DNA of 64,000 bases from Neophaeotheca triangularis (GCA_054600435.1 BAAIJX010000038.1:124001-188000); one strand, 5' to 3'; positions 1-26,279 are shown, numbered from the stretch's first letter. Notes: generated by a model from the sequence alone, not told the origin. A program made the numbers and translations.

Positions 1-993
1 GCAAAGTGTCGGAGAATATGTCTGCGTCGAAGGTTCCGTTTCCATCCGTCTCCTCTGAACGAGACGTCAGAGGCTCACTTGGCGACATGTCTTTTGAGGG
101 ATCGGGTCTCGGAACCGGCGGCCGTGAGAGTGGAGGAAGCGCCGTTGACTCCTGCGCTTGAACCAGCGCAGCTCGGAGCGAGGCTGACAAACAGTCAGCT
201 AGGTACTATATACGTGCGGTCCCGTCACCTTGGCTATTTGTGCAGATACCTGAACTTTCCAGAATAGTCTTGGAGGCGGACTGCAGCTCCACTGCCGCCG
301 GACCAGGGACGCATGTTTCGGAAAGCGTGCGCAGGTCGTTGCTTATCAAAAGCACGAAGAAGAGAGCAGCCGTGTCTCGAAGGCGGCTGTGCTCTACGAC
401 TTCGCCGGGGAGGTCTTTCACAGGCCCTAATTTCATCCCCTTCGAGGGCAGCACGGCAGCTCCGGTGCGGTCATCGACCAGGCATGCGGCCAATGTCAGC
501 GAATGAAGACTAGTCAACGTGAAACAAGACCTACTATCGAGACGACGGAGAGCCCGCGAACCGGCAGTGTGTGCACGAGTGAATTGACTGGTTAGCTCGT
601 CCTCGCCCTCAAGCGCCATTCTGTGACAAAGCACATTTTGGTGCCACCAAACCGAGAACGCCCCGGGCATTGCTCTTGGTACTGGGCGCGGAAGCGATTC
701 CCCCAACGCCGCCGGCGTGAAAAGGACTTCTCTCGCCTTGATCACGCTCGCGTTAGCAGGGCCCAGACATGCTGCCTCTTCGGGTCGAAGCATTGGGCAA
801 AGGTCGTGGATCTGCGTCTCAGGGTCAGTGCATCGCTACTCAGGTCGTCCTACGGGTGTCTTACAATTGTCAATAGATCCGGATCCTGCTTGGCTCCGTG
901 AAGGGAGCGCAAGTCGCTGTCGCTCAGACCATCTCCTTCGATGCGTTCCAGGATTTTGCGCAATTGCGCTAGACTCGGTTTCCCTGTTTCCAT
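1..993 (-). CDS. Orphan multi-exon protein, 3' end runs off the window
   Basis: ATG 993 (METGKPSLAQ...). Intron 864-812 (GTAAGA..CTGAC..CAG) joins in frame to the 206..793 ORF. A further intron near 230-190 (GCTGAC..TCAG) leads to an open frame reaching base 1. Confidence 0.6.
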
Positions 994-1249
994 CGCCAAT
1001 GTCGTACTTACCACATAATGGTGAGCCAGGCGACAACAGAGGCTCCGTGGCTTCGCGACGAGCTTGGAATTAATAATTCGCGCAGTGTCGAGGCAGCACT
1101 TTCCGGAAAAACGCGCAATGTAAAGGGCAAAACACATAAACGGAGTTTTCCAGTAATAGCATGCAGGTGGCAACAAAACGCCACCAACCCCCGCGGCGCC
1201 TCCCCCCTGGTACCTTTGATCGCATACCCTAGTCCCACTAGCCTAGTCT

Positions 1250-3575
1250 CTACTCGTCCCCCGAGGAATCAAGGTCTTCTTCCCCCTCGACTTGCTCCTC
1301 GCCTTCTGTAACTTCTTCTGAACCTTGTAGTGACATATCATCAGGCTCGCTCGACAAACATTCTCCTGTTGCTTCTTGGCCCTCATGTTGGCGCTTGCGC
1401 CGGCGGCGCACCTTCTGGCGGGATTTGCGAGCCTCTTGTCTTGGCCGTTTGCGGCGAGCGTCTATGATCATGGTTAGCAACAGTAGAAACACCTTCATCG
1501 CGCGATGGCTCACATCCGTAATCCCAGGCTGCTTGGTGGACGTGTCTCAAGGTTGTATGGTACGAAGTCGCGTCGAAACTTTTGTTCGCGCTGGTCGATT
1601 GACGATTCACGATGCTGACGGGGCCCGAGGCGTCCAGTACCCTTCGCAGCTCGCGCCAAAGGCTGTGATCTTGCACGCTCAAGACATAGCGTGCAACATT
1701 GACGCCCTCGAGCACGAGAGGATGATCGAGCCGGGCTACGCCGGTCTGTCTGCGTTCGGCAAAAATGGCTGGGCTCTGCTCGGCCGTGTAGTCAAACAAG
1801 TGCCGAGCTTCAACCTTGAGGGCGGGGTCCGGCAGCTGCATATTCTGGCCGCAAGCATAGGAGACAATGAATTCCGCCGGCAATGCAAAGTAGCAACACC
1901 AGGGCCCACCGCCAGCCGTAGTATCGCCTCCGTCCATCAGACTTCCGATAATCATAGGGTAGGGGCTGACTGCGGTTTTGAATGGCGCAGGCTTGCGCCA
2001 ATGAATCGCTTTGAAGATCAACGGGAACGACTGCGGGCTCGCCATCATTCGGCTGGCTTCCATGGTGTGGTTTTGCAGGCGCAGTAGAATGCATCGAACA
2101 TCGCCCCTGCAAAGCTCACGCGAGTATACGTGGAGCGGGAGTTTGCCGCCAAAGTCGTCGTATTGCTGCTTCTGATCATCGGTCCAGCTGTGGGCCACGA
2201 ACACGTGCGTAGCAAGTGGGTGGAACGGGTCTAACGGCAAGACGATACCGTAGCCTTGGTGCCGACTTATTTCATTGAGTTGCGGGCAAAGAGAAGGGAG
2301 GGTGGTTGGAACGGTAATTCGAGCACGCTCAGAGAATTTGATCTCTGCGATAAGGCGTTTGATCCTCCGGCTCTTTGCAGCCAGCATGTCTACCGAAATC
2401 TCATGCGGCTGAACGTTTGCCAAAACGGAAGCGGCTTTTTGTCGCGCAGCGTCGGCATGTTGCCTGATATGTTGAAGGGCCTCGGGGAAAGTGGCGAAAG
2501 TGTGGTCGCTTCGGAACCCCGGAGGAAACGGATCACTAAAGTCCAGGTGATCGCCCCAGTCGTCCCCAACTTCGTCACGCATCACGCAAAGGATTCCCTT
2601 GTCCGAGTCCATCCACAAGACGTGCCAAATGCGCCGCCTTTTCCAGGGAGATCGTGCACCGGGCCCAAGCAATGCACCACCTGCGCCCCCGCCGTCGTAC
2701 TTGTGCTCAACCCTTAGCGTACCAATGTCCGGAAGGCTCATCAGGAAGTCGAAAAAGAGAGGCGCTAAGGGGTTCGGTTGGACTCTCCCGCCTGCATCCT
2801 CAATAAGCGCCCACAATCTTAGGTAGGCCTCGTTCGACGAATTCGAAGTTGGTGAGCCGGTGATGGATGTCACAGCAGAAGATCGAGACCCGTTGACCCT
2901 AAACCCCTCGAGCTCAATACCCGTGGTTGGATTGCGGTAAGCGGTGCCGGCCACTACAGCGTCGGCTATGCTGTTATAAGCGTCTCTGAGGTCCGGTAGA
3001 GAAACCATGAATGGCTGGAACCAGGCTGGTATGCCATTGATAAGCGGTTCAACACCGTGAACCGCACCCCGCGCGCGCTTCCATGCTTGATATGGGAGAA
3101 TGGCGAGGTGATCTGCAACGTTCTCGAAAGCGATGACGATGAGTTCGGCGGGCTGTTCCCCAGAATAGCTCGCGCTGTGGCGGTAGTCCTGTTGGTGGAA
3201 AACCTGGCCCCGTAGGGCGATGTATTTGACGTCGAACGGCACAAAAGAAGCTTTCGGGTGCTCTTGTAGCCAAACGTCCCGATCAAGGAGTCCATGCAAG
3301 GCTATCGGATCGCGGACGGCGCCTGGGGGATAGCATACGAACGCACCATCGACGGCCGCCGACTCAAGTGCTGATAAGTGTCAGTGAGTGCTTGTTACCA
3401 CATGGCTAAGGCGCGTACATCGGATTGCTCCAACACCGGCTGCGCGCAGTTGGTCAAACACCCAGGCTTCGCCTAGCATCGCAGCGATCAAGACAGCAGC
3501 ATGTCCTCTAAGGTGAGAACTTGCTCTGCGGATAACGTCTGTCACGCTAGGGTCTCGGGAATGAAGCGCTTCCAT
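1250..3575 (-). CDS. 741-aa protein with tandem PD-(D/E)XK restriction-endonuclease-like motifs, basic NLS and acidic tail
   Basis: Exons 3575-3419, 3370-1514, 1461-1250. Introns GTACGC..CTGAC..CAG (48 nt) and GTGAGC..GCTAAC..TAG (52 nt) both keep the frame. Motifs GEAWV..VDG..FDVK and NEAY..FDF..VEHK. C-terminus RRKRPR..RRRRKR followed by a D/E-rich tail. Confidence 0.7.
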
Positions 3576-3831
3576 CGAGGGCAGTGTCCTTTGAACGGTG
3601 TCGTTGAGTATGTGCTGCGACGAAGGAGGTTGCTGAGCCGGTGTGCGGGAACCTCCAGCTGGAAGCCAAGCGCGCAACTTGCGGGGTCACGGATTTGCTG
3701 ACGCAGCCTTCGACACGCGTTTACTAACCGCCGGTCACTGGAACAAAAACAGCATAATCAGTAGGACACCCTCACACCCGAAGGGCCTCAGTGCAAGGAG
3801 CATTAAGGTTGTCACGAGCATCTGCAGGCGG

Positions 3832-4917: not shown

Positions 4918-5173
4918 CTAGACTAATAACGATTGCGGTGGACGTTATCGCTGGCGGTAAAAGATTGTATGTCGTTGAAGTAAAAATTGACGCGCGGGTT
5001 TAGCTCGCACGGGGCCAACCTTGAAGATGTTTTAGCCGACTAGTAGGGCCCTCGGGAGGTACACAACACCTTACCCGTCCGTGTGCCCGTCCTAGCCCGT
5101 CCGTTTCATCGACATCCACTCTCGTGCGGACACTGAATACCTCACGGAAGACATTCTGCTTTTCTGCGTACAG

Positions 5174-5830
5174 TCCGGTCTTGGCGAATCCGAGGGTTCG
5201 TGCATTGATCGAGTTCTTACCCCACCTCAAAGACAGTCTCGAGGAAGTGCGTCGTACAATGGTCAAACATCAAAATCTCACACGATTTAGCAATGTCAAT
5301 GACCTGGAACAAGTCCACAAAGCTAAGCTAATGTTTAAAAACGCTCTCTTACAACAGACTCTTCGGAGCCGAACAAACCTCTCCATCCCTACTCACCATG
5401 TCGAGATTGCATTCGGACTTTCCAATGCCCAAGCCCTCGAGCTACTACACAACCACTCCACTCAAAAAGGAAACAAAGGTCCACCTCTACCATGCACTTG
5501 ACAACCCAACAACGTCGAAAGCGGGCGCGAGAACAATCCATTCGATTTCATTGACTGGCACGAATCTGACCACGTCTTCACTGGGCAAACGAGCCACAAT
5601 CGACGCAGCAACGCACCAACACTGCTGGAGGCGGATGTGAAAGAGAAAACCACCTCAAGACATTGTCATCGCCCGCTATATCAAGGCAGACGCCACTTGC
5701 CCGCCACCACGACGCTACAATCGCTCCATCCATTTCGATCTGTCGAAGCGACACTTTGCTACGTGAGAGCTTCGCAAAGAACGCCGCCAGGCCGAAAGAA
5801 CTTAACAATCTGGGCTGAAGAGCTGAGGTC
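5174..5830 (+). pseudogene. Degraded coding remnant
   Basis: Protein-like stretches in three different frames, broken by TGA/TAA stops. A branch site and acceptor GCTAAT..ACAG end at 5357. Confidence 0.3.
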
Positions 5831-6322
5831 AAGCGATTGGGCATTCGCGACTCGAGGCTTTTCCGGGTGGTTTTTACCGTGGGGATGGGTGTCGGAGCCG
5901 AGACGATAGGGTCACGATCCTGGTACTATCTCTCGAGCAAAGGTGTCAAGAGGGATGCGAAGATTACCACGAAACGTCGACGGGGGGCGAAACAAAGTGA
6001 AAAGCGATTTGGGGAGGAGCAGAGGTGGCTGGCCACCACCTTTGCTCCCCTCCATTTCGCATTCCGCCCACAAAGAGCGCCTTGAGGAGGGGAGTGTTGG
6101 AAGGATGTGGGTGGGGACTAAAAACAAGCCGACAGCGCGGTTCACTACAGTTTGGCGGAAATTGGTGTGGGAGGGGAGGCAGTGTTGTGGGGCTCTATCG
6201 ACCAAAGATGAGCAGGCGAGTGGATTGAAGATGGCTGGACGCAGCCCGCGATAGAGGCGAGGAAGCGGGAGATCCTTTCGTTGTAGATGGATTCCATTTG
6301 TCTGATAATGTAGATAGGGCTG

Positions 6323-6379
6323 CTCCGAGCTCGCGAGACTGAAGTGGCTGGCCACCACCTCAGTCTCGCGAGCTCGGAG
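6323..6379. repeat. Perfect inverted repeat, 20-bp arms with 17-nt spacer
   Basis: CTCCGAGCTCGCGAGACTGA (6323-6342) and its exact reverse complement (6360-6379). Confidence 0.95.
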
Positions 6380-7037: not shown

Positions 7038-7226
7038 TGGTCGAGGGTTGGAAGGGAAGCGATATGGATCACGAGGGCGAAAAGGTGTAGGGTGGGGAAG
7101 TGCGCTGGTACCGTGTAGTGTACGAGGCTGGAACACTTGATATTATTATTCAGACATGGGAGGTACTGTAGTGCAGCCAACTGTTGTTATGACGCATCCC
7201 ACGCTCCCGTCCGCCCCAGAAAATCA

Positions 7227-8198: not shown

Positions 8199-8564
8199 TC
8201 TTTCGTCGAAGCCGATGTGGTGCCCTCAAGTGGTGTAAATGCGAACAGCAACTCGTCTGAGAGCGAGCGAGAATGGCGGCCCCAAGAAAGAGTCGCGTGG
8301 TTTTCACGCAAAGGGGGTTTGGCGGCAAATGCAGCCAGCCGCAAAGCCCCTTGTCTAGAAGAGGATCAGGGGAGACTTTTGTTTGACTTCCGACCGCCCT
8401 TTTTGCGCTCCCGCGTTGATCTCCCAACTCCATCTCAGTCCTGACATGACCGCGCACGCTCGATGAGAACGTCCCCAAAACCCGTCCACATCAATTTACA
8501 TCAACAAGATCCGATACAACATCACCCTACTCCTCAATCGACTCGTACTGAGCCAAACCTCGCA

Positions 8565-9425
8565 ATGGCCGCGAACCGGTACTTCACAGCACAATACGTG
8601 CCAGACACCCGATCCATCCAGATCGGCCATTGCAAGTGTGGCTGCGACGACGCCGCCTTCGCAATCCTCAAAGGCATCGGTGGTGATTTCGACGTTAGCC
8701 AGTGCCGGAACGGCAACAGCAAGTTCACCTCTGTCAAGCTCGCCAAAGACATATCCCATCTGAACCCCGACTATCCAAAGCGCCCCACCAGCAAGAAGTT
8801 GTTGAAGAGCAACATCAGCACCTGGATCTCGTACCGCGAACTCTCGTCGGCCCTTGTGCAAAGCAACGACGTCGATTACCTACGTATGATCAGACCGGCC
8901 GACGACTCCATGGCACTCGTACCTTACCGCGAAGCCACCACGACCGATGACGAGGACGATGGGAACGGCGGCTTCGACACCGTCACCGTCGTGCCGCGTC
9001 CGCCACCGGGACACGTGGAAGCGACGAGAGTCACGGCGTTGCTCCACGTGGCCAAGGAATTCGCCCTTACTAACTGGAAGGCCCTTGCCAAGGACACGGC
9101 CATTCTACTAACAGCCTGGCACCTCCGCGACGGCCAACATTTCGTCACGGTGCTGAACGCCATTCTCCCAAAGTACTACGTCAGCCTTCCGGACTGGCTC
9201 CCTACCGCGACCGCGCTTACAATCGCCACGATGCAGGAGACGCTCACCACGCCGGCGTCTACCAGCATGTACGACATTGTGGCTGGCTCTCGGGGGGGAA
9301 GCCTCTCTCTCCCGGTGCCTCCGCCGCGCCGCAGCCTGCGCATTCGCGAGCCGAGCCCAGGTGCGGAAGAGCGCAGGCGAGCGGTCGCCGCAGCGACCCA
9401 GTTGCGAATTGAGAAAAACTGCTGA
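8565..9425 (+). CDS. Orphan protein, possibly with a degenerate KilA-N/APSES-like region
   Basis: Long ORF with C-ending codon bias, ATG 8565. FTSVKLAK...STWISY weakly resembles KilA-N (NATKLxK...GTW). The CDS is well supported; the domain is speculative. Confidence 0.6.
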   Translation: MAANRYFTAQYVPDTRSIQIGHCKCGCDDAAFAILKGIGGDFDVSQCRNGNSKFTSVKLAKDISHLNPDYPKRPTSKKLLKSNISTWISYRELSSALVQSNDVDYLRMIRPADDSMALVPYREATTTDDEDDGNGGFDTVTVVPRPPPGHVEATRVTALLHVAKEFALTNWKALAKDTAILLTAWHLRDGQHFVTVLNAILPKYYVSLPDWLPTATALTIATMQETLTTPASTSMYDIVAGSRGGSLSLPVPPPRRSLRIREPSPGAEERRRAVAAATQLRIEKNC

Positions 9426-9897
9426 AGAATGATCTCGCTCACGAGGCAGATTGGAGGTTGGAGGGCTGTTGGCTACACAAGTTTAGCTGCCCCTCCGGGC
9501 GTGGCACGCGAGGCTACACGCATTGGGTGTTTTCTGAACTAAGAGCCGGAATGGTGGGTGGGAAGGCTTGTAAATGGACATCATGTTGAGGACGAGTGTG
9601 GTGTCGGGCGGAAGGGTTGACAGCGGAGGCATAGTGTCGGAGCAGATTTTCATTTTTGCACTCAATGTTTTGGTAGCAGTAAGGAACCTTGGACATTCGT
9701 ACTTGATACATGGAAAGTGTGGAGCTTGACAGCCCGAGCCCTGGCCTTGGCCTCGCAACACACAATATGTTGGTATTCAGTAGGTATCCAATGCTATTTC
9801 GATCAACACGAGCGATGCTGCGAACGAGGACGTACCCAGACGGAGGTCCTCCGTCCGGCTCTCGAGCCGTCGATCCATCACCCCCGACCTCCCTGGC

Positions 9898-10468
9898 TTA
9901 GCGGCTATCCAACACCCAGCCGAACCTTGCCCTCCAACTGGCTATCAGCTGCGCCCGACGGTTCCTGGCACCAGAGAAGCCTCGCCCGTTGACTGTGCGT
10001 GAGAACTGGGGGAGCCACTGGAAGGAGTGACACGGGTGGTCGGTAGCCGTGTCGTCGGCGAGGATGGGGTTCGGTATGTCGCCGCAGCGCGGGGGGACAC
10101 CACGGGAGAGTGCGTACTTCAGGACGGGCGGTCCTCCGTTGCTGCCTCGCAGTAGACGCATGATGACGGTGTGAGTTTGCACAGCTCCATTGTCCATGGC
10201 CAAGTGTAGAGTCCCGACTTCGATGTAGCGGTTGCCGTTGACTGGCCCGTCCTCCGCGATGTTGTTGGGCGTGCGAGCGGCGCTACGGACGCCCTGGTCG
10301 TCTGTGGTGAGATCGACGACTTCGGATCCGCGCGTGTCGACAGAAACTGCCGTGCTTGATTCGTTCGCATTGCCGGCTGGAGAGACCTCCGTATTTGGCT
10401 TCGAAGGTTTTAGCACTGATCCACCGTATCTCCGACATGTGACTTACTTTTGGAGTCGAGCCGTCCAT
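9898..10468 (-). CDS. Orphan 2-exon protein with SIM-like VVDLTTDD
   Basis: ATG 10468. Phase-0 intron 10447-10399 (GTAAGT..AAG) joins MDGSTPK to the 9898..10416 ORF. Confidence 0.55.
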
Positions 10469-10854
10469 CGCGTCTTGGGATGGTACTGCCTGTAATTATT
10501 GTTGGGAGCAGGTCCTGATGCGGCAATGATGGCAAACGTTACGTCGACTTCTGACTGCGAAGTCCCTGTAGTTGAGCCAAAGATCGCGTCTTGCGTTATG
10601 TCCGAATGGTGAAGGTGTTGCTCATGTCTCAGCTCGATGTTACTGTTCGACACAATGTGAGTCGCTCCCGCCTAGCCAGCGTGTCGGTTCAGTCATTTAA
10701 ACTCCTTTACCTTCCTACAAGTGGCAGCACACCGACAACCTCTCCCAAAACTTTCTCCACAATCATCCTCCAAAGTCGCTCTCGACAGGACGACGCTCGA
10801 CGGGACTCATCCACAAAACGACCGCCCCAGCCTCATCTGCTCCCTCCAGACACT

Positions 10855-11553
10855 ATGAACGACATGATCCCGGGTCCCAGCAACATCGACGGCAAGGAGG
10901 GAGATGGCTCCAACACTATGCCCACCCCCCCTCCGTCGACGAAGAAACGCCGCATCTCCGACCCCGACCCCGACGAAGACTACGAGGGCGCTCGTAACGC
11001 CAAACGATTCTGCAACACGCTCATGCAGAATAAAGCCATCGGCCGGCTGCTCACCAGGCTGCAAGTCGAGGTCGAAGAGCAGAACGCTCACATCGAACAT
11101 CTCCGCCACATGTATCTCGTACAAGCATGGCCAACCAGCGGGGCTGACGTGGAGATCGTCTTCCAGAACCTGTACTATCCGTACATGGATGATGGGAAAG
11201 AAGCCAAAGACGCCCTTCGAACTGCTTTAGAGTATGTCAGAGCCCGCGCTGAAACTTTGGAAGAGCACCTGAACGACGAGGACTCTGATGAGGAGGAGGA
11301 GGAGGAGGAGGAGGAGGAGGACGCCGAGGAGACTGCACAAGAGGATTTCAAGGAGACTGCCCAGGAGGGTGACGAAGAGACTGTCGCTGAGGGGACTGCT
11401 GGGGCTACTGTTGGAGAGACCGCTGAGGAGGGTGTCGAGAAGACTGCCGCTGAGGAGGACACTGACGAGGCTGCCGAGGACGATGCCGAGGAAGTCCACG
11501 ATACGAAGGCGGATGACGACGGTGACGAGACCGAGACAGACGACGAGTTGTAG
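10855..11553 (+). CDS. Orphan protein with KKRR NLS and long D/E-rich C-terminus
   Basis: ORF 10591..11553, probable ATG 10855, (GAG)n repeat encoding poly-Glu. Confidence 0.7.
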   Translation: MNDMIPGPSNIDGKEGDGSNTMPTPPPSTKKRRISDPDPDEDYEGARNAKRFCNTLMQNKAIGRLLTRLQVEVEEQNAHIEHLRHMYLVQAWPTSGADVEIVFQNLYYPYMDDGKEAKDALRTALEYVRARAETLEEHLNDEDSDEEEEEEEEEEDAEETAQEDFKETAQEGDEETVAEGTAGATVGETAEEGVEKTAAEEDTDEAAEDDAEEVHDTKADDDGDETETDDEL

Positions 11554-14004: not shown

Positions 14005-14088
14005 ATTCCCCGTGCTATTCTCCCGAGCCCGATTTCCCCAACCATCCTATTCCCCGTGCTATTCGAGCCCGATCTCCCCAACCATCCT
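14005..14088 (+). repeat. Tandem duplication, 44-nt and 40-nt copies
   Basis: ATTCCCCGTGCTATT..CGAGCCCGAT.TCCCCAACCATCCT occurs twice, with a 4-nt indel. Confidence 0.85.
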
Positions 14089-14109
14089 ATGAAGGCAGTG
14101 ACGGGAGAT

Positions 14110-14619: not shown

Positions 14620-14843
14620 GTTGACGGCGTCGAGAAACGTGACCGACGAGTCACGAGCGGGTTTGGCGGTTTTGTCGCGTACCTCACCGGCTGGTGGCGA
14701 GAGGAGGCTTGGACAGTTAGTTGTCGTGTTTGGCGGCAGGGGTCAAAGCGGCTCAGCTGCACGCAGCTATCCGACGGTCTCGTTCCTACTTAAAAATAAA
14801 GCAACGGTCCCGACAGTGCAACCTCGCGACAGCAACCCACAAC

Positions 14844-15901
14844 ATGGCGCCTCGCCAGCCAAACATACGCACTCTCCCACCTGAATACAGCTTCACGAAG
14901 CCGACTCCACGAGAGCAAATCGATCAAGTAGTGAAGGACCAGCGAGCAGACTACAACACTAGGCCCTTGTCCGAACATGAGACTGCTGTGCTTGCTCTGA
15001 ACGAATGCGCCGCATCCCAGAAGCGTGGATTCTTCTTCCACCTACCGCTCCGAGCTTCTTACACGGCCAAACCTCCAAGCCTCAGTCGTGTCCCTATGGA
15101 GCGAAGGACGCCGGCTCCGCCGTATGGCCCCCTTTACCCCAGCACCTAGCGAATGCAGTGCTGACCGATTGCAGACCCGACTACCCAACCATCATCTACA
15201 CGCCCTTCGTCTGGACCGATTCTGCAGCTACTGCGTTCCACAACGAAACCCATCGCGCCCGCTACCTCAGAGCCAGTGCTTTGATCAATCCCCCTCCAGA
15301 TTACACCCCGCTTTACGGCATCCAGTACGTTGGCGATCGTTTCCAGGTCTTTGCCACAAAAAGCGATTCGCTCATCCTTTTCGCGAGCGCATCCGCTTAT
15401 CATCTCGTCAAGACGTCGACCGCGAAAGGTATATTGGGAGCGAATCCGAGGGACGCGAGGAAGATGGGTTCTGCGGCTTGGCTCTGGAACACGCAAGGTG
15501 GGGACGCATCCTCGACCGCCAGCAAAGAGCGCGCCATGGCCGCATTTGGTTTACCGAATGTGGAAGCGGTTTACCAGGAAGTTATACGCCTCTGCTCGGG
15601 AGAGGGGGGGCTCGAAGAATCGTTCACTGCGGCGCAGCTGCGAGCACTGGTCCCCCGCCCTCAAAGCCAGCCAGCGGCTTTGGTGGGTTCTGGACTGGGT
15701 GCTCGCCCTTCCTCAGATCCGGCGTCGCGGCGTGGTGAACAGCACAAATTTGGGCCTCGGGCGAAAAGGCGGAAGTTGGGAGTTGGCGATGATGCCGGAG
15801 GGGAGGAAGGCGATGCTAGAAGCGAAATGGTAAGCGAAATGGTGAGCGAAATGGTAAGCGAAGCGGATGGAGACGTCCTAAGCCCGAGCGAAGGGTGGTG
15901 A
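14844..15901 (+). CDS. Orphan 2-exon protein with KRRK NLS and (SEMV)3 repeat
   Basis: ATG 14844. Intron 15122-15174 (GTATGG..CTGAC..CAG) joins the 14721 and 15005 ORFs in frame. Confidence 0.7.
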
Positions 15902-15926
15902 CGAAGTGGTCGTCCGGGTGGCGAGC

Positions 15927-16544
15927 TTATTGTCGCCTACAGGCAAGCTGTAGAACGCTAGACCTACGCCTTTGCGTCGCTAGCCCAACAGGTTTGATGG
16001 TGGCTCTGCTGAATGTCCTCAGTCGCTTTGTGCTTGGAGCGGGTGCAGACCTTCGCGCCAGCATACGACCGTACGATTGACACACCGACAGACTAGCAAG
16101 AGTGACTTCAAAGCCAACGCAGTTGCCACCGTCCCTGCCCTCGCCGATCATAAAGTAAAACGTTCCGCCGGGAGTGAGTTTGTGCGGTGACTGTCGTAAG
16201 AGGCGCCAGCCTTTGGTGGATTCATCGGATATCCACGTGCCATTGTTTGATACGTCTGTGAGCGTTATGGACCCAGTGTGATGCTCGAGGTGAATGAGAA
16301 AATGGCAGCTGCTCATCCAGTGCCGATCGGGTAGTTGGAATTCGACAGCCCGCGAGGATCCGAAAGATAGCTGTTTTCGACCGAGGAATAAAGATAAGTC
16401 TAGTCGAGCTGCAAGGCGCGGCGGCCTCGCTGGTGATGGTGTCGCTCGCACGCGCCGGTAGCGGTTTGAACGGAGCTTGAGCGCCTGTTCGGCCAACTCG
16501 GTGAGTGGACTGAAGACGGCAAAGGGCTGCGAGTGCTGTGACAT
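15927..16544 (-). CDS. Stand-alone FHA-domain protein
   Basis: FGSSR..MSSCHFLI..LTDVSNNGTWI matches the FHA G(R)..SxxH..NGT signature. Confidence 0.75.
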   Translation of the reverse strand: MSQHSQPFAVFSPLTELAEQALKLRSNRYRRVRATPSPARPPRLAARLDLSLFLGRKQLSFGSSRAVEFQLPDRHWMSSCHFLIHLEHHTGSITLTDVSNNGTWISDESTKGWRLLRQSPHKLTPGGTFYFMIGEGRDGGNCVGFEVTLASLSVCQSYGRMLARRSAPAPSTKRLRTFSRATIKPVGLATQRRRSSVLQLACRRQ

Positions 16545-16889
16545 TTTGCAGTCGCGAGGAGTGGTTGGCTTTTGCGACGGCGATGCCTCTGGTCGACCGA
16601 TCGTCCGTCATTCGATCCTTAAGCAATGCCATTGCCATATCTCGTTGGCTTCAGGGCTGCTGCTTCGCCCTTTGTCTCGAGGGCCGCTTCGACAGTTTCA
16701 TGACGCCGAGTAGCTCCTGCAAGACATGGTAAAGTCGTGCGACTGTCTCGAACGACCAATCTGCAACTCGAGGTCCCTACACAGAGCATACGCAAGACAT
16801 GGACAGGTGGCAGCGCCTGTCGATGCGTTGACAGATTCCACGTCTACAAGCTTGTATGGGAAAGCATTGGGGCTTTCTCGCAGTCGCTT

Positions 16890-17531
16890 TCACAATACAT
16901 CTCGGAACTTCCGCACAAAGTTCGCCAAGGCCTGAGCATCAACGCTTACTGTGCCCTCCGGATGGGGGACCCGGGTTGCTACACTGTCGCTTACTGCTTT
17001 TTCCAGGGCTTCTAATCGCGAGCTCAGCGCGCTGTCCGCCTCTTGCTGAGATTCTTGCGCGGCGGATATTCCATCCTTGACACTAACGAGCTCTGATACA
17101 AGCCTCTCGACCACAAAGTCGTGCTGCGTCCTCTTGTCGCGCGCTTGACGTTGCTCTGACTGAATCGACTCAAGCTCCCGGAACAGATCCTCCTTGCACT
17201 GTCTTGCTTCTACTGAATGTTCCTTGGCGACTTTTTGGACTTGGACCCGAACGACAGAGCCCAATGCCTCTGGACTTACGCTCTCCTGTTGACGGTCGAT
17301 GACTTCACGCATGCGCTCGTTCTCCTTTTGTAGAGAGTCCCTTTGTCTAGCTAAACTGTCCGCGTTCATTCTCAGCATATTAAACGACTCCCGGAGTGAC
17401 GAATATTTGTCCTTCGACTCTTCCAATGCTTTTCCCAGAGTATCGACACGGTGTTCGAGGTGGATCTTGTCTCCAGGGGAGTCCCATCGATGGAGGCTTG
17501 GGTCCACCGGCCGGGGTGGCGGGGGTGACAT
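16890..17531 (-). CDS. Coiled-coil orphan protein (3' end uncertain)
   Basis: 213-aa ATG ORF with E/K/R/Q-rich heptads. A possible donor GTAAGC at 16949 suggests a further exon. Confidence 0.6.
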   Translation of the reverse strand: MSPPPPRPVDPSLHRWDSPGDKIHLEHRVDTLGKALEESKDKYSSLRESFNMLRMNADSLARQRDSLQKENERMREVIDRQQESVSPEALGSVVRVQVQKVAKEHSVEARQCKEDLFRELESIQSEQRQARDKRTQHDFVVERLVSELVSVKDGISAAQESQQEADSALSSRLEALEKAVSDSVATRVPHPEGTVSVDAQALANFVRKFRDVL

Positions 17532-17907
17532 GGCACGGAGGCTTTACGTATAGGCGCAGCAGAGGGATTTTGGGTCGCGGGATGCCTATGCGTGATGCTT
17601 TGTAATTGTTGCCATTTCCACGCTGTACGATTGAATGAAGTGAACACATGGAAGTACGGGTGTGATTAGAAGTACCCACTGTAGTTTCCGGTACTCGTAT
17701 GCACGGACTGACACCCCGCCGTACATGTGGAAATACTGCCAGGTAGGTACCTGAGGTATCAATGTCTATCTATCGGCTACGACTACAAGGTAACAACGAG
17801 TACAGCCCCAGACCTGAAAACACCAACAAACAATCACAGTAACTCCACCCCACCTCCTCCGCGAGCCCCCGGCATCCCGTCCCCAGTCTGATTCCCCAAA
17901 GCTGACG

Positions 17908-18894
17908 TTAATATCCGTCCCATGGTTCCATGAGCTTGAGCTTGCAGATGTTCGAATTATTAGCAACCTTGCCCCCCACGTCTGACTGGTTTATCGCGTC
18001 GTCTTCTACTGCCTTCTCCTCACTCCTCACACTCGGGTATTCAAATGGGGAGGCCGGCGCCGAATCGGGCATTTCTTCTTCGAGGTTTCGTGGCTGGGTC
18101 GACGCGGTCGAGAAGCCGTGCGTGATCGCCCGCCTTGCTTCTATGCGGCTGCGAATGGAATCGTTCATGAGAGTCTCCAGTGCGCTTACACGGACTCCCA
18201 AGGTGATGAATTGTTCGCGGGACTCCCTTCTAGAGTTTTGAAGCTCCTCCTTCAACTCTCCGAAGCTGGCGACGAGATTACCGAGGAGTTCAGTGGCGCG
18301 GTGTGCCGATTGCTTTTCGTTCTCCATCGAAGTCTGAAGGACTGCGACCGTTCCCTGCATCTCCTTGGTATCTTCTTTGACACTGGCAAGCACAAAAGCC
18401 TGTGACTGAGCTATCTCTACAAGCGTTGACAGCTTGTCCGAGATCGCCAGCCCTCGCTCCTCGCTCTTGTCGGCTCTTGTCTGAATAACCCTAAAGGTCG
18501 CAGCATGCTCTCTGGCTAACTCTTGTTGCATATCGCTCAGATCTTCTTGCAGTCCTCTCTGGAGTGCGCCCAACGACTGCGTGCGCTCGTGCTCGGTAGG
18601 CGTCGGCCCCTCTCCTGATGGCCCGAAATTTCTCGGAGCCTGTTGGCTTGGGCTTGAACTCGGAGAGTGGATGTCTTCGTTGCGCAGCCGTGTTTGGCAG
18701 TCCGGCTTGGGACGATGCGTGCTTCGCTCTTCGAAAAGCTCGTTGCTGGCGTGATTCCGTCTCGGTTGCTCGCCTCGAGGTACCCACGACGCGCTCGACA
18801 ACTTTGTTCGCTGGTAGTCACCGGGCTCCTCGGCTCTTCGAAGGATAGCGGCGTTTATTGTTTCCCGGTTCCTCGGCAACCTACTAGACGACAT
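17908..18894 (-). CDS. Coiled-coil orphan protein
   Basis: Long ORF, probable ATG 18894 (MSSSRLPR), disordered N-terminus followed by a long heptad region. Confidence 0.65.
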   Translation of the reverse strand: MSSSRLPRNRETINAAILRRAEEPGDYQRTKLSSASWVPRGEQPRRNHASNELFEERSTHRPKPDCQTRLRNEDIHSPSSSPSQQAPRNFGPSGEGPTPTEHERTQSLGALQRGLQEDLSDMQQELAREHAATFRVIQTRADKSEERGLAISDKLSTLVEIAQSQAFVLASVKEDTKEMQGTVAVLQTSMENEKQSAHRATELLGNLVASFGELKEELQNSRRESREQFITLGVRVSALETLMNDSIRSRIEARRAITHGFSTASTQPRNLEEEMPDSAPASPFEYPSVRSEEKAVEDDAINQSDVGGKVANNSNICKLKLMEPWDGY

Positions 18895-19668
18895 TTTGAT
18901 GCTGTGGCCGTCGGCGCTGTCGCTGGTATTCGAATATGCTGGAGACTCTGTTGGTGCGGCGCTGGGTTGATATGGTGTAACAAGAGAATGCGCCGTGGTG
19001 CAATAGTGCCGAAGAACGTGCTTGGTCAAAAATCGGATCGCTATCGCAGTGGCAGGCGTTTGGGGGTTTCCAACGGTGGTCTCGGCCACCGTCAATCTCA
19101 GCTGGATACTGATTTGGATACTGATTGACGCAGCCTCGTGGTATCCTCTCACTCGGTCCGAGACAGTTCAGCCGGGTCTCGAGTAAAACCCGAATCGATA
19201 TCTAGACTCGCCATGCTGCCTGCCCGATATCTGCCAGCAGGGACATAAATTGCCGCCACCCCTTCTGTTCGGTCGTTCTCGCCCATCAATACCACTCTAC
19301 TGTCAAATACTGCGATCTCTTTCGAGCACAACACCTATTTCTCACCCTGCGCGAACCTGGTTTTCGCCGGCTGCTACCTCACGCCCACTCCAGTCACCCT
19401 CTCATCACAAGGACCAGCTTTGCGTAAGACCTCTCAAAACCCAGACCGTGGTCTTTTTCCTCTACTTACATTTCCGCAGCCCCCCCTAGGAGTATTCTTT
19501 TTTCACGCGTCCTTCGTGGCTTTTTCGTTGGTCTCAATTCATCGTCAATCGCAACTTCGAGGTAAGCCCTGCGCTTTCGAGTAGCCAATGGCAGTATGCC
19601 TGCGTTCCGTGCTCACATCTCGGCAGGCCCTTTCAGACGCTTCCCCTACCCCACATCCTTCCACCGCC

Positions 19669-21135
19669 ATGCCACACGACAATGACGACCTGTACATCAC
19701 GTTTGGGTACAATTTGAACGGTTTGAAAGTGGCGGAGCTACACGATATTCTGAGCGCCAATTGCATAAGGCTGCCTGCCACATGTGCAAGGCCGGTCAAA
19801 GCCGACCTTCTATATGCCGTGGAGCGCTACTACGCCAAAGAGAGGCTTGCAATGGGCGATGCCCCGACCGACTACTTGAAGCCCAATTTCAATCGATCCG
19901 CATCGCAGTACAAATGGTCGCACATGCGGCAGCTCCTAGCTCAATTCGGCCTCAGGTCGCCGGCAGACTCGTGCACTGCCACAGCTGCCTTTTTCGATCG
20001 CAACCTGCAATACATGCGCGATAACACCCGTCAGCCGACTAAGCCCGCGCCCGCCGCCGGGATCGAGGACCTCACGGCTAATATGGCCAAGCTGCCGATC
20101 TGGGACCCAATGCCTCCGCCAGATGAACGTCCAAGGCAAGCAACTTACGCTACCCCGAGGTGGACAACACCCAAGTCCCCACCTTCCCCGCAGCCTTTCA
20201 CGGACGAACGGTTGTTCGAGCGGGCGCATGATTCACAGTCGACTGCCTTCGAAGCCAGAATGACTTCCAGGCCTGGAGGTGCCCCGAGCTACAACCTGCG
20301 CAGCAGAGCCGATCCACACCGTCGACCGGATCCGGTATTCGCCACGCAGCCCCAGCCCCTGCGCCGCAGTGCCTGGGCCACTACGCACGAGGAAACCTAT
20401 CAGCGACCGGGTGCTTCAATCTTCGAACCATACGGCGAAGGTGTGCACTCCAAGACGGGTGGATTCTCGCTCCTACCACGTGATACTTCAGCAGGGGACT
20501 CGCGCGGCAAAGTCCCTGCTTCACGCGGCTTCCACGAATCTGCCTTTCCACCACCAACACCGATGCCAAAAGCCTACAGTGCTAGAGCCACAGCGCAACG
20601 TGACGTCCACCAGAGTGGGGAGTTCCCGCCGTCGGCAACGCACCATTCCAGCCAGGACCGCGACGAACCGCTGCGTGGTAGGGCTACGGGCAGGAAGCCG
20701 AATGGCGAGCGTGAAGATAGATCACGCCGGCACGGCAGACTGTGCGACATGTTGGAAGCAGGATTTGCCGCAGCCATCAAGTCCATGAAGATGGGCGACT
20801 GCATCGGTATGCTCAAGGTTGTCCACGGCATCTCGGGCGAGGCCAAGGCCTTTCTGTTCGGGCCTGAGTACGCGTCTGGCATGGATGAAAATTACAACGA
20901 CGCCGACATCCAAACCGCCTACAACTCTTGGAGCCAATCGGCATTCCGCCGTACCCCAGAGGAAAGCCAACGTGCGCAGTGCGATATCATCACGCTCCTG
21001 CAGCATTCTGGTTGCGATGCGATCCAGTACGCCGAGGCTGGCGATTCACTCACCATGCTCGGCGTTCTCGATGACTTGCCCCTCCAAGTGGGAGCGCTAG
21101 TCCTCAGGCCAAAGAGAAATGATGCTTGCTATTGA
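19669..21135 (+). CDS. Protein with two N-terminal HeH/LEM-like motifs
   Basis: LKVAELHDILSANCIRLP..KADLL and DYLKPNFN..WSHMRQLLAQFGLRSP resemble the fungal Src1/Heh1 N-terminal HeH motif. No TM segments. Confidence 0.65.
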   Translation: MPHDNDDLYITFGYNLNGLKVAELHDILSANCIRLPATCARPVKADLLYAVERYYAKERLAMGDAPTDYLKPNFNRSASQYKWSHMRQLLAQFGLRSPADSCTATAAFFDRNLQYMRDNTRQPTKPAPAAGIEDLTANMAKLPIWDPMPPPDERPRQATYATPRWTTPKSPPSPQPFTDERLFERAHDSQSTAFEARMTSRPGGAPSYNLRSRADPHRRPDPVFATQPQPLRRSAWATTHEETYQRPGASIFEPYGEGVHSKTGGFSLLPRDTSAGDSRGKVPASRGFHESAFPPPTPMPKAYSARATAQRDVHQSGEFPPSATHHSSQDRDEPLRGRATGRKPNGEREDRSRRHGRLCDMLEAGFAAAIKSMKMGDCIGMLKVVHGISGEAKAFLFGPEYASGMDENYNDADIQTAYNSWSQSAFRRTPEESQRAQCDIITLLQHSGCDAIQYAEAGDSLTMLGVLDDLPLQVGALVLRPKRNDACY

Positions 21136-21347
21136 GAATATGGGGAAAACGCCAGAGTACAAGTGTGGTAGAGGATTTGAGCGGCATCGTGGGCTGCAGG
21201 GCGACATGGTATTGAGGTTTTCGTTTGTCTCGGGCTATAGATGGAGGGGGCTGGAGCGGTACTGTGGTTTACATTGCAAGGAAATGTCGGTTTTTGCTTT
21301 CGGCCAAGGCCGCAGATGGATAGGTGGATGTTGACTACGTTGACTAG

Positions 21348-22184
21348 ATGCTTCCATTATACACATGGTTCGACGCGCCCGTTCCGTTTTGGCCCTATCG
21401 ATTCTCCGCGGAGCACTTCTTCTCTCGTGGGGATGGCGAGCGTGTCATCGATGTGGCACTTTGGGATCGTAACAGCGACGTAGGACAACACTGTGACAAC
21501 ACGCTGGCTGTCAAAACCAAGGACGACCCATCCATCGTTCCTACCATCTGCACCCAACCGCAAGCATCTTCGCGACATTTCAAGGTAAGCGCGCATCCAG
21601 ATGGCCGCTAGAGATTGATCGGCAATTGATCAAGTAGAGCAGTACCACCTCTTGCCCCCGCCGAGCTCGACAGCTTCACGAAGCGGAAACCCGACGTCCC
21701 GCGATACAGTAAGCCCAATCAATGTACTTGGGTGTCGGAGTTGTCCCGGTCGCTAATCGTCGCCCTACGCAGCAGTCTCGAAACCGCTCCAGCTACAAGC
21801 ATGCCGACCCGCGAGGAGTGGGTCTGGGCTTCGCCTGTGCAGAACGAAGATGGCCGCTGGGTCCGTTGCGGCCTTGAGCTTCTCATCACCGTCACTTTCA
21901 CCAACAACTGGGCTGTCAACACTTCGGTCGAGGTCGTTCGCGAGATGAAGATCTTCTTGGACACGAACACCGAAGCCGAGCAGGGACCTCAGCAAACCGA
22001 TCCTCCCACCAGACCCAAGCCCAACGGCGCCGCCAAGAACCAGAAGGAGCCTGCTACGACCGAGGACATCGACCAGGTTGGCTTTTTTGTCAACGAGGAC
22101 GACGAGGAGGAGGCGATGGAGGTGAAGATGGAGACGGCGTCGGATCAGGGCGACAACGGCCGCAAGCTCATCTTTGGCTTCTGA
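21348..22184 (+). CDS. Orphan multi-exon protein
   Basis: Two GTAAGC donors (about 21584 and 21709) with downstream acceptors can link the 21348 and 21732 ORFs. Acidic C-terminus. Confidence 0.5.
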
Positions 22185-22987
22185 TCGCGAGACTCGAAAG
22201 GCGCAGCACCCGGAGAAGATGCCAAGTTACGCCGAGGTCTTTAACCCACGAGGCCCGCGACAAGTGAGCACATGCCAAGGCTCTGACTAGAGACATCTGC
22301 GTAGCAAATCATACACTGTAGCGTCATCATTCCATACCAAAGCCATGGACAGTGTATGTGCGGCTTGCCTACCTCCTTAGTGACGTTCGTGCACCCCAGG
22401 CTTGCTTTCTCCTTTTACACCTCACCATCAAGTTCGCAACAGCTTGGCAAACTCCTTGTCTTTCGCAAGGTACCTAGGTAAAAGCTACACGCCATCCTCT
22501 AGAGCGACGTTCGGCTGGTCGGTACCTGTACCCGAGCAGATTTAGAGGGTCTGTGCGTGCTGAGACAAGCAAACTCCTGGCAACTTTAATCTGACCGCAC
22601 TTTGCGACCGCAATGTCGAACAGCACAACGGACCGCTGCTTCACCGTTCCCCTTAATCTCCCACGCTTTTGTCGTTTCTGAGTCCCTCCAAGCAGGCGCA
22701 AAAAGGAATGAAGCCACGCGCGCTCTACACCGCATCGTTGCCAATTTGCTCGTTTGGGCTCGGCGCCTGCAACCACCCGGCGGCGTCGGCATCGGTTTCT
22801 ACACCATGGTCATCACATCAGCAGCTGTTGCCCAATCAACCGCTTCGGTTCCCTTTCACTAGTCTCAGTCTGGGACCAAGGATCGTCTATAAGCAGCATA
22901 GGCAGTCCGAAAGGCTAGGTAGTTATATCCTCCCATTTCCCGTTCTCGCTTTGCAAACCTTTCCTACAGTTGCACATTGGTGGAAGT

Positions 22988-23789
22988 ATGGCACGGAACA
23001 AACGCAAGTCCACCAACCGTCGTCGCCCTTCCGGCGGAGGCGGAGATGGCACCCAACCCAACGATCCCAACAACCCCAATCCAGCCAACATTCCCGCCAC
23101 CACTACTCTCACCACTGTCAACGATACCGGCTCCAACACCCCTTGCCGCACCAACAATGTCCAGGACGAAGCCAGTGACAGCAAAGACGAACGCCTTGAT
23201 GTGTGGAGTATGGCTGGTGATTACTTCCGTAAACGCTTGACCGTAGGAGCACCCTTTACAGTTGTCCACTGTGCCAAACGCTAACTGCTGTCCAGGTGCT
23301 CCAGAATCTTGCCATGCAGGATGAAATCATGACCGGACTCTCAGAGGTCCTCAGTGCCTTCGCGATGCACGACGCTAGGTTTCTGGCTGAAGACCCCAAC
23401 ACAACAGAATTCACGGTCGGTACACAGTACACTTACCTCCTCAACAGTCTTAGCCTGGCTAACGAAGCTTCAGTTCCTCGAGCAGCTACTTGTGTTGCGC
23501 GAGTTCGCCGAAAAAGCTTCCGAGTGCGAAGTAGCCGTGAGAAGCATATGCCATCGACTTGCTGCTGTGGATCGCATGGCTACGGGGGGCGGGCTATGGC
23601 CTAATGTAAGACCCTAAGACTACCGGGGTTTCAATCACCTGCACACTAACCTTTGCGAAGACCCACAGGATCCTCGGATCTGCAAAGCCAGCACTGCTTG
23701 CAGCACAGGGAGCCCTAGGAGAGTTGGCCATCAGGTTCCAGCACGAGGTCAACATCACGGAGTCCGCGGCGCGTTACCGCGGACTCTAA
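22988..23789 (+). CDS. Orphan 4-exon protein with basic N-terminus
   Basis: ATG 22988 (MARNKRKS). Three short introns with GCTAAC/ACTAAC branch sites. Stop TAA at 23787-23789. Confidence 0.55.
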
Positions 23790-24134
23790 GAAAAGGCGTA
23801 GCAATGACGAGTCCTCGGGACATGGACCTATGGTTTGACGGAGGACGAGGAGTATGGTAATAAGGGTTTGCTTTTCAAGTCTGTCGCTACCGATGAATGT
23901 TCACTGGGGTTTTTGTGCAATCTTGCAGGCATGGCGTTAATCTGACACTTTTTGCCACCCGTTTTCACGCGTCTTCGTTTACTTCGAGCCTGGCCAGCAC
24001 CTCGAGCGTTATAGCCGTGTTACCTTCGACGTAGCGGACACGACCCTCGACACGTAACTTTAAATAAGTACACCCCGCTGATCCTCATTAGGTCTCTTCC
24101 TCATCCTACGACAACCGCAAGTATCACCTCTAGC

Positions 24135-25286
24135 ATGTCAGCCAATCAGCCCAAGCTCTGCGACAAGCAGCGCCCGGAGCAAGGAGCCGACACTACATTC
24201 GCCACGGCCAGGCTCTCGTCGAGCAATCCGCTACCCCCTACTACTACGAACGCGAGCTACATCGATCTGACCGGCGACGTTACTCCGCGATCCACACCTC
24301 CACCTACCGCAAATCGATCATTCGCCGCTCCAGTAACGCCTGTTACGCTAGCAGACTCTATGGCCGGAATCAGAGAAGGAGTCCGCGATCTCCACTCCTA
24401 CCCCTTCACGGGATCGTCAACTACCTCGGACCCCTTTACCTCTACAGACAATCTTGACGAAGAATGCAAAATTGACCTGGCCAAAGGCAAGAGAACGCTA
24501 CCGTCCGTGGATAAGCGCTCATTCGGCTCCTCAATCCTCGCCACTTCTTCGCCACATCTACACGGATGCAATGACGAGGGCGTCTCCGAATGTGCCATGG
24601 CTCCCATCAGGTCCGACTTCGCGTCCATTAGTCCACCACCCATGAACGGCCGCCGAACTCGTCACACCTTCTCCCCTACCTCAAAGCCACGACTGCGCAA
24701 CCTGAACGAGCAAACGACTCCCGCATATGGCGATTCTCTCCTTATCCCTAGCACCCCACCAACCGCATCACCGCGACATTCCCGATCCGATAGTCCTTAC
24801 ACTACCGAGGAGGCCGTCCCCGAACGCCAGAATGGTAGGCTAGGCAAGCGCAAGAGAGATGTGGATAATGGTGGGGCCCTTGCAGCCAAGTTTCTGCGAG
24901 AAGGTGAGGATGGCCGTTGGATGAAGGTGGCAGAGGAAGTCATATCAAGAGTGGACGAGCACGGCGCCATTGTGACGGACGCTTTTGGATGCGCTCTCCA
25001 TCTCAAGGTCGAAATCCAGTTCGCTATCGACAGCATCGACCGCGGAAAGATCGATAAACCCAACTTTTCCATGCGCTATGCGGGGGGCGCTGCCGCGATC
25101 TACCGCGCGGAGACCCTTAGGCCTGCAGCCATTCCCGCATCAGGTTGGGCGGCGAAGCCCGCTGGCCGCAAAGGATGGCAGTGGACTACGGAGCTCGCAG
25201 ATGCCACGAATGCGGACAAATTCACCCCGGCCCAGCGCTTTAGGCGTGCCGTGATGATGTACGGAGAGATGCGAGGTCGCAAATAG
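24135..25286 (+). CDS. Orphan 383-aa protein with SIM-like YIDLTGD and KRKR NLS
   Basis: Intronless ATG ORF: S/T/P-rich N-terminus and a globular-looking C-terminus. Confidence 0.7.
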   Translation: MSANQPKLCDKQRPEQGADTTFATARLSSSNPLPPTTTNASYIDLTGDVTPRSTPPPTANRSFAAPVTPVTLADSMAGIREGVRDLHSYPFTGSSTTSDPFTSTDNLDEECKIDLAKGKRTLPSVDKRSFGSSILATSSPHLHGCNDEGVSECAMAPIRSDFASISPPPMNGRRTRHTFSPTSKPRLRNLNEQTTPAYGDSLLIPSTPPTASPRHSRSDSPYTTEEAVPERQNGRLGKRKRDVDNGGALAAKFLREGEDGRWMKVAEEVISRVDEHGAIVTDAFGCALHLKVEIQFAIDSIDRGKIDKPNFSMRYAGGAAAIYRAETLRPAAIPASGWAAKPAGRKGWQWTTELADATNADKFTPAQRFRRAVMMYGEMRGRK

Positions 25287-25537
25287 TTGAGTGCACGTAG
25301 GGAGGAAGACGACGGAGCGAGGAGAAGGAAGACGCAACGACAAGGGTGAGCAAGCACGGGAAAGGAAGGCGGAGGGCAAGGAGTCAGGATAAACTTACCA
25401 TCATCATCAGTAGAATCGAACACCAGCTTTACTGCCTCTCATCAGAAAAAAAAAACCATGTTCCTGCCTCTATGCCTCAGAAATTGCCAAGAAAAACCTG
25501 AGGCCGCCATGTTTGAGAAAGGGGGTAAGAGATTGGG

Positions 25538-25608
25538 GGTCTAGTGGTATGACGCATCCTTCACATTTTCACCGGATGAGGCCCCGGGTTCGAGACCCGG
25601 CGTGACCT
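25538..25608 (+). tRNA. tRNA-Val(CAC), 5'-truncated (pseudo), with 7-nt intron-like insert
   Basis: D-arm GGTCTAGTGGTATGAC, anticodon stem CATCC/GGATG with loop TT-CAC-A[TTTTCAC]C, T-arm CCGGG-TTCGAGA-CCCGG, 3' acceptor strand CGTGACC. The upstream AGATTGG cannot pair with it and U8 is missing. Confidence 0.8.
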
Positions 25609-26279
25609 AAATCTATCACCCTCTCGCGAATTAGCATCACGATTGGGTACGTTCTTTTTTCTCCAGCGTCAGCCCCACGCTTTCCTTTTTGTTGTCCACC
25701 GACGACGACGTTGAGCTTGCTGTGTGGTGAAGAGGTCGAGATTCATTGCCCTCGGCTTACCCTTGATTCGCGAGGCGTACCATAGGAATGAATACTCAGT
25801 CGGTGCAGACAAGGCCTTGGAAAAACCATGTATTGCATTGTTGGGTAAGGGCGTTTCTGTATGGGCATTGAGCTTCTCAGTGGCATCAGCGGACACGGCA
25901 TTTGATGGATTCCTAAGTATCTGAGAGTTAGGCTGTACCGTCCCCTCGCACGGAAACCGGTCAAGAAATGAAGTAAATGAAAATTTGCACTTGCATCGTA
26001 TGAACATTGTAGTATGGCATTGGTATTGAAGGGCTATTGGCGTCACCTATTGAGAACTTCAAGGTGCATCCTTTGTCCCAATCAATGCTTGTGCGAAGAC
26101 AAGTATTTCGCATAGAGCTCGACGCAATTCGCATCTTTCTGAACCCATCCTTTGCGCCTGACGTGCCATTGTGAACCGTCAGCCTACAAAAGCCACAAGG
26201 AGTCCAAGTCGATGTCGAGAACCATGTCTCGAAATTGCCTGTAGCCCTCTTAAAACATCCTTTTCTCAGACTATTTACC

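Follow-up and report, generated by a model that had tools for sequence, protein, structure and literature searches.

We analyzed a 64,000-nucleotide (nt) stretch of DNA from Neophaeotheca triangularis (GCA_054600435.1, BAAIJX010000038.1:124001-188000; hereafter the window, with positions counted from its first base), in which a block of genes, domain-less and apparently poor in introns, extends over at least 25.5 kb (1-25537) and ends inside a transfer RNA (tRNA) gene. At the junction (25537-25538), the last base of this block, hereafter the island, is followed by position 9 of a valine tRNA with anticodon CAC, tRNA-Val(CAC), beyond which lie core genes. A large accessory insertion at tRNA position 8/9 is the probable origin of this arrangement. 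On this view, a larger piece of accessory DNA, of which the first 25.5 kb would form the right-hand end, inserted in the tRNA-Val(CAC) gene between nucleotides 8 and 9; the insertion would have severed the 5' acceptor strand, and the tRNA body, now dead, would have been left beside an Acinus-like gene. A second sequencing run of the same organism label, X2, would hold both a filled and an empty allele (as a diploid, a heterokaryon, or a mixture). For the reading as a whole, accessory DNA inserted at 8/9 with both alleles in X2, we estimate a probability of about 0.55.

The tRNA remnant spans 25538-25608 on the plus strand and comprises positions 9-73 without positions 1-8. Its beginning (25538-25565) is identical at 28/28 bases to exon 1 (positions 9-37, anticodon CAC) of three intact tRNA-Val(CAC) genes, L001-L003. 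These loci were retrieved by scanning metagenome contigs with the 28-nt exon 1 as the query; for each, ARAGORN with introns allowed (-i) recognized an intact tRNA-Val(CAC) whose intron, at 37/38, is 28 nt long. They come from another fungus, have neither synteny nor anything else in common with the window, and differ from it in the acceptor strand preceding exon 1; their use is that of a positive control only. The remaining arms of the remnant were read by eye. The D arm is GTCT/TGAC, and the anticodon stem CATCC/GGATG encloses 14 bases (TTCACA + TTTTCAC + C), with CAC at positions 34-36 and seven extra, intron-like bases after position 37. The T arm is CCGGG-TTCGAGA-CCCGG, with a B-box-like GGTTCGAGACC, and the 3' acceptor strand is CGTGACC, followed by T. 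Exon-1 identity, anticodon placement, T arm, and B box all indicate tRNA-Val(CAC) by descent. The element is a genuine tRNA-Val(CAC) body truncated at 8/9, in agreement with an earlier interpretation of the window made without database searches (the sequence-only reading), which had described a tRNA-Val lacking its first 8 nt.

The remnant does not qualify as a functional tRNA gene, as a complete cloverleaf with a paired acceptor stem is absent. ARAGORN returned 0 tRNAs in the whole window in both default and -i modes, and the seven bases 5' of the remnant (AGATTGG) can pair with CGTGACC at only 3/7 positions. Rfam gave no match on the window at gathering level; at E ≤ 10, the only match was the tRNA-like mascRNA (E 0.59). 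The RNA fold of 25530-25610 has a z-score of +0.63 and no cloverleaf, as expected for a tRNA body without its 5' strand. At a lowered threshold, ARAGORN made 29 calls in the window, including a "tRNA-Glu" at 25501-25609; these calls carry implausible introns and were taken as noise. Some details of the tRNA body are unusual: the seven extra bases fall within 25560-25573, compared with the 28-nt intron of L001-L003; the discriminator position 73 (25608) is T rather than A; and the first run of at least five T residues lies ~48 nt downstream. With a 7-nt intron and U73, the intact allele itself may be atypical for a tRNA-Val gene.

Further information on the junction came from a search of sequencing runs with 20611-30610 as the query. 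Four runs were found, and their contigs were aligned to 9001-29000. X1, with a share of words of 1.00, is probably the source run; X2 has the same organism label and derives from another sample (share 0.50); X3 is an air metagenome from a different study (share 0.25); and X4, again of the same label (share 0.00), matched only ~300 nt of the ArfGAP gene at <90% identity and is too distant to inform. In X1, the contig sequence is unbroken over 11334-29000, across the junction, with no loose end at the tRNA, and contig record 1 (25722 nt) reaches ~14.8 kb to the left of window base 1. Record 6 of X1 and record 17 of X3 both bridge 25537/25538. The X3 sequence spans 23692-26961 across the junction with 38 differences (~1.2% divergence); two short X3 matches, 22106-22144 and 25462-25498 (37-39 nt, 6-7 mismatches), seem spurious. 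Since the junction is bridged or reached by contigs of three runs from two studies, it is real and not an assembly artifact.

The contigs of X2, which diverges from X1 by ~1.5%, fork at the tRNA. An 18.6-kb island contig covers 9001-9648 and 10833-25567, with 218 differences and one 1,184-bp skip, and ends at 25567. A contig of 564 nt starts at 25538, runs unbroken to 26098, and thus overlaps the island contig by 30 bases (25538-25567), as expected from a fork in a 31-mer assembly graph. Only 5' of the tRNA body do the contigs fork. In a further X2 record, aligned from 25538 onward, at least 255 unmatched bases precede this point and end in ...CAAAACAAGGTCAATTTCCAAC GGTCGCGT. The GGTCGCG within GGTCGCGT pairs at 7/7 positions (one of them a G-U, G5-U68) with the CGTGACC of the remnant and is followed by U8; by our own arithmetic, the chance of 7/7 pairing is ~(6/16)^7 = 0.001. 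The 22 bases upstream of GGTCGCGT had 0 matches in the window at ≤3 mismatches. The entry of GGTCGCGT at 25538 places the break between tRNA positions 8 and 9. The sequence-only reading had predicted the missing 5' piece to be GGTCACGT or a wobble variant, and X2 supplies the latter, differing through G5-U68.

We infer that the 5'-complete version in X2 is the empty allele of the same locus. An intact tRNA must be ancestral, and the junction at 8/9 is therefore derived. At 25611-25613, two X2 versions overlap, with depths of 82.6 and 62.8 of a total of 145.4. Depth data hint in the same direction. Word depths range from 83 to 110 in the X2 flank contigs, which are only 312-798 nt long, compared with 61.7 for the island contig, where depth is not to be equated with copy number. 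This contrast would fit two versions of the locus, only one of them with the block. Across 10833-25537, X2 provides no second contig, and the depth of the island bins equals that of one contig exactly, a hint of a second version without the block, where uncovered does not mean absent. Presence of the block may thus vary within the species. X2 was assembled into 124,999 contigs for 32 Mb, compared with 56,312 contigs for 32.5 Mb in X1. The sample behind X2 may be a diploid, a heterokaryon, or a mixture; the related black yeast Hortaea is known to form diploid hybrids.

The two sides of the junction also differ in gene content. By Pfam, 0/31 stop-to-stop open reading frames (ORFs) of at least 150 amino acids (aa) in 1-25.4 kb passed the cut-off (one had sub-threshold coiled-coil matches) and 0/134 ORFs of 75-149 aa matched at E ≤ 0.001, which leaves 0/165 six-frame island ORFs with a match at E ≤ 0.001 and agrees with the sequence-only reading that the island holds no recognizable housekeeping gene. 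Pfam-bearing ORFs number 0 in the 25.5-kb island versus 10 in the next 38.4 kb; at core density, we calculate that ~6.6 would be expected in 25.5 kb (rough Poisson P ~0.001). Searching the ORFs against one another with blastp revealed no paralogues, and a repeat search of the window found no transposon debris or long repeats, only low-complexity repeats. Fourteen long ORFs (≥180 aa) have an in-frame ATG near the start, compared with the ~17 genes counted before. The fungal introns previously ascribed to these genes were not confirmed: a strict intron pattern matched the island twice, versus 4.6 +/- 2.0 times in shuffles, with neither match connecting ORFs, and each of the three database gene models checked (P0001, P0003, and P0004) is contained in one ORF. 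On the core side, several intron-pattern matches adjoin ORF starts (e.g., 28629-28702, before the ArfGAP ORF). The island genes are thus apparently intron-poor. A full-length homologue at 37-39% identity and the share of synonymous changes in two ORFs (9/15 differences between X2 and the window, taken together) show that the island ORFs are real at least in part, and the block comprises ~14 real but unclassifiable genes.

Several findings weigh against an inserted element. Among the X2 contigs listed, none joins the intact tRNA 5' end to the Acinus-side flank, and the expectation of a conspecific intact tRNA-Val at this site is borne out as far as the 5' end joined at 25538. A paralogous tRNA-Val(CAC) gene in X2 would leave an identical loose end. 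The restored tRNA would be odd, with its 7-nt intron and a U at position 73. Composition changes little across the junction: GC content is 0.562 in the island and 0.548 in the flank, CpG observed/expected ratios are ~1.0-1.09 and 0.81-0.99, respectively, the window shows no signature of repeat-induced point mutation, and median codon-usage scores (0.125 vs. 0.21-0.26) do not differ significantly (Mann-Whitney p 0.16). The core side has orphan ORFs too, at 33-41 kb, and the contrast in content is partly a sampling effect: the core-side ORF 35879-37525, which lacks a Pfam match, also finds only itself in 5.8 billion clusters, and "orphan" thus partly reflects sparse sampling of the lineage. With respect to Starships, the giant transposable elements of fungi, no DUF3435-type tyrosine recombinase, the captain that forms the first gene at one end of such elements, was found among the 165 ORFs of 1-25.4 kb, the end expected to carry it lying to the left of the window, and the same 165 ORFs contain no DUF3723, PLP, FRE, or NLR by Pfam. 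The cargo of a Starship usually contains some transposons as well as genes of known domain content, none of which are present here.

The strongest competing explanation treats the remnant as a decayed tRNA pseudogene beside a fast-evolving, lineage-specific chromosome region, with no insertion at all; the X2 contig carrying GGTCGCGT would belong to a paralogous tRNA-Val(CAC) gene elsewhere. Isoacceptor paralogues normally have the acceptor stem and exon 1 in common, so the X2 loose end would be expected, and the orphan ORFs outside the island, its flank-like composition and codon use, and the lack of a mobile-element gene are all in keeping with this view. A paralogue sharing a 31-mer should, however, break the X1 assembly as well, and X1, of the same label and ~1.5% diverged, has neither a second contig nor a break at the tRNA. 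The unbroken X1 sequence means that X1 has no second copy of the tRNA body of at least 31 nt and that the 5'-complete end is not in every genome of this organism. In X2, contig 10 continues unbroken from 25538 into the flank, and the fork is confined to the 5' side. Nor does a pseudogene usually decay by losing positions 1-8 cleanly and exactly while keeping the other 65 nt and the intron-like insert intact. We regard this explanation as fairly unlikely. As to the earlier proposal of integration at tRNA 8/9, an insertion, or at least a derived junction, is supported by the X2 loose end, for which a paralogous tRNA-Val is the other candidate source.

A translocation or inversion with its breakpoint in the tRNA gene would predict the same junction anatomy, namely, a truncated tRNA here and an intact allele in another genotype, and the 25 kb would then be ordinary DNA that had been moved rather than a mobile element. 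tRNA genes are known rearrangement breakpoints in yeasts, and the hallmarks of an element that were looked for were not found. A rearrangement only moves DNA, however, and leaves the total lack of domain-bearing genes in 25.5 kb unexplained; we consider it unlikely, below the paralogue in rank. Least probable by far is the integrated genome of a virus-like or otherwise new, non-Starship element with intron-poor ORFans and a tRNA attachment site as in bacterial islands, which would account for the all-ORFan content, the apparently single-exon genes, and the attachment point inside a tRNA gene but is opposed by the absence of capsid, polymerase, integrase, or packaging domains among the island ORFs (Pfam), by two island proteins without relatives in IMG/VR and known relatives that are fungal proteins, by host-like GC content and codon use, and by the lack of a tRNA-body repeat of at least 31 nt elsewhere in X1, unlike bacterial tRNA islands.

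Individual island ORFs were compared with sequence and structure databases. The largest, 1386-3380 on the minus strand (665 aa; database model P0001, 619 aa), is conserved, with no function assigned. It matches itself and one relative, P0002, at 37% identity; a full-length cluster-mate of the latter, P0014, has 610 aa, and the homologue is 37-39% identical. No Pfam match, PDB sequence-search match, or usable ESM Atlas match was obtained for P0001, and its AlphaFold2 model, built from a three-row alignment, has a mean predicted local distance difference test score of 35.1, too poor for a fold search. The ORF at 8445-9422 on the plus strand (326 aa) differs between X2 and the window at five sites, four of them synonymous, and on this basis appears to be under purifying selection. 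For the plus-strand ORF 12365-13579 (405 aa), 5/10 such differences are synonymous; the ESM Atlas returned only unnamed fungal clusters, and the best PDB match is at chance level (E 0.86). The minus-strand ORF 15930-16607 (226 aa) bears a weak likeness to FHA domains: phmmer against the PDB matched residues 77-132 to Rad53 FHA1 at E 4e-4, and no Pfam family matched at E ≤ 0.01.

The plus-strand ORF 19585-21132 (516 aa; model P0004, 488 aa) has an N-terminal domain of ~100 aa in common with a few Dothideomycete proteins. A full HMMER search against 1.84 billion representatives retrieved, besides the query itself, eight matches (E 5e-6 to 6e-4), all restricted to the N-terminus. Four of the eight are named (Hortaea, Ramularia, Teratosphaeriaceae, and Cercospora), and the other four are unnamed; none of the eight has a Pfam family. 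Residues ~30-147 represent a small, undescribed domain family. By eye, the domain contains an LKVAEL...L motif, which we take to recall SAP/HeH motifs. Since the named relatives are all Dothideomycetes, the host appears to belong to that class. The last island ORF, 24015-25286 on the plus strand (423 aa; model P0003, 383 aa), found only itself in the protein database. Its stop codon (25284-25286) lies 251 bp before the remnant, matching the ~250 bp given by the sequence-only reading. The description of the island as all-orphan therefore stands insofar as no Pfam domain was found, and it needs qualifying by the weak FHA match, by the two ORFs with distant relatives, and by a core ORF that is equally orphan.

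Other parts of the island are less densely coding. Few convincing ORFs occur within 3.4-7.2 kb. The plus-strand frame 5025-6251, interrupted by only two in-frame stops (5499-5501 and 5907-5909) in 409 codons, may represent a decayed gene. At 6323-6379, where the block is poor in ORFs, two 25-nt arms that are 96% complementary form a near-perfect inverted repeat around a 7-nt loop. The 1,184 bp skipped by the X2 island contig (9649-10832; joint 9648->10833) contain the minus-strand ORF 9901-10443 (181 aa) and show no obvious terminal repeats at their ends; this segment is an indel polymorphism within the block.

Beyond the remnant, core genes follow, as the sequence-only reading had stated. The first is an Acinus-like gene at 26283-27959 on the minus strand, with matches to SAP (Pfam, E 1.1e-8) and to RSB_motif (E 1.6e-4, below its own cut-off). 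An ArfGAP gene lies at 28703-29830 on the plus strand (Pfam ArfGap, E 2.7e-20), and further ORFs match SNARE, Sin1, TFIIE-alpha, ICMT, hexapeptide transferase, NSRP1, SDR, and kinase families. The core side has a run of its own without Pfam matches, at 30-41 kb, in which the long ORFs are 33685-35025, 35879-37525, 37973-39466, and 40014-41220. A 9-nt-periodic, CAA/CCA-rich coding repeat at 40257-40385 in a core-side ORF encodes a low-complexity, Q/P/T-rich protein region. The window as a whole is 55-57% GC and contains no Ns.

If the first 25.5 kb are accessory DNA inserted at 8/9, a giant element carrying cargo would have brought in the block by integrating site-specifically, and a Starship-type element with a tyrosine recombinase at the left end, outside the window, is the leading candidate. 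The case for a Starship is indirect and draws on three features: a host class with known Starships, a gene-rich block of at least 25.5 kb, and the existence of several Starship families that target fixed internal positions of 5S ribosomal DNA (rDNA), a gene transcribed by RNA polymerase III. In size, the island (at least 25.5 kb, ~14 long ORFs) is within expectation for Starships. Their host range, the Pezizomycotina, is matched indirectly, by the Dothideomycete relatives of one island protein, and Starships are known in Dothideomycetes, for example, Voyager in Macrophomina. The auxiliary genes DUF3723, PLP, FRE, and NLR are common in Starships without being strictly defining. Starships have short direct repeats and terminal inverted repeats at both ends; no inverted partner of at least 25 nt was found for the terminal sequence in the window, which includes only one end. 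That a recombinase-driven giant element of a Dothideomycete integrates inside tRNA-Val(CAC) between positions 8 and 9 is a tentative proposal.

Among the known means by which many genes are moved together, within a fungal genome or from one to another, Starships are the principal one. Should the proposal hold, this locus would be the first case of a Starship that targets a tRNA gene, or else it would define a new class of integrative element in eukaryotes, with only domain-less, intron-poor genes in either case. The RNA polymerase III targets of giant fungal elements would extend from 5S rDNA to tRNA genes, and the parallel with bacterial islands that attach at tRNA genes would become sharper. 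The exact break point at 8/9 offers a ready site for studying target recognition by the recombinase, and the possible within-species variation of the block makes it a tractable case for the role of accessory genes. If instead the paralogue or the rearrangement is the true explanation, the region is ordinary, lineage-specific sequence adjoining a dead tRNA, with little wider interest.

Among characterized systems, the closest comparison is with the Starships that target 5S rDNA (Voyager, Enterprise, and Arwing). The likeness is that of a large, gene-carrying, apparently within-species-variable block that disrupts a small RNA polymerase III gene internally. The differences are that the target here would be a tRNA gene; that no captain, DUF3723, PLP, FRE, or NLR is in view; that internal transposons are lacking; and that the cargo is entirely domain-less. 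According to PMC11162782, 5S rDNA accounts for 23% of 222 curated Starship sites, all of them internal, with 5S rDNA and AT-rich or transposon sequence reported as the preferred targets. The Tangerine preprint lists DUF3723, PLP, and NLR in Starships. Our literature search found no report of a Starship in a tRNA gene in the accessible texts, although supplements and Figure 5B of PMC11162782, on features near sites, might record one. In their accessible sections, the Starship texts (PMC11162782, PMC9156397, PMC13004909, and the Tangerine preprint) mention tRNA only in methods or by bacterial analogy.

Bacterial genomic islands, integrative and conjugative elements, and prophages provide the second comparison. 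These elements usually integrate at the 3' end of the tRNA gene, which is rebuilt from a carried copy, yielding a direct repeat. Here, in contrast, the break, at 8/9, falls at the 5' end and destroys the tRNA, and no second copy of its body of at least 31 nt occurs in X1. A bacterial-type tRNA-integrating island was accordingly set aside, given that no such repeat of at least 31 nt is present in X1, where shorter repeats are possible. What the systems would have in common is the choice, in the style of tyrosine recombinases, of a conserved tRNA gene for stable attachment, and the Starship authors themselves draw the analogy with bacterial islands (PMC9156397).

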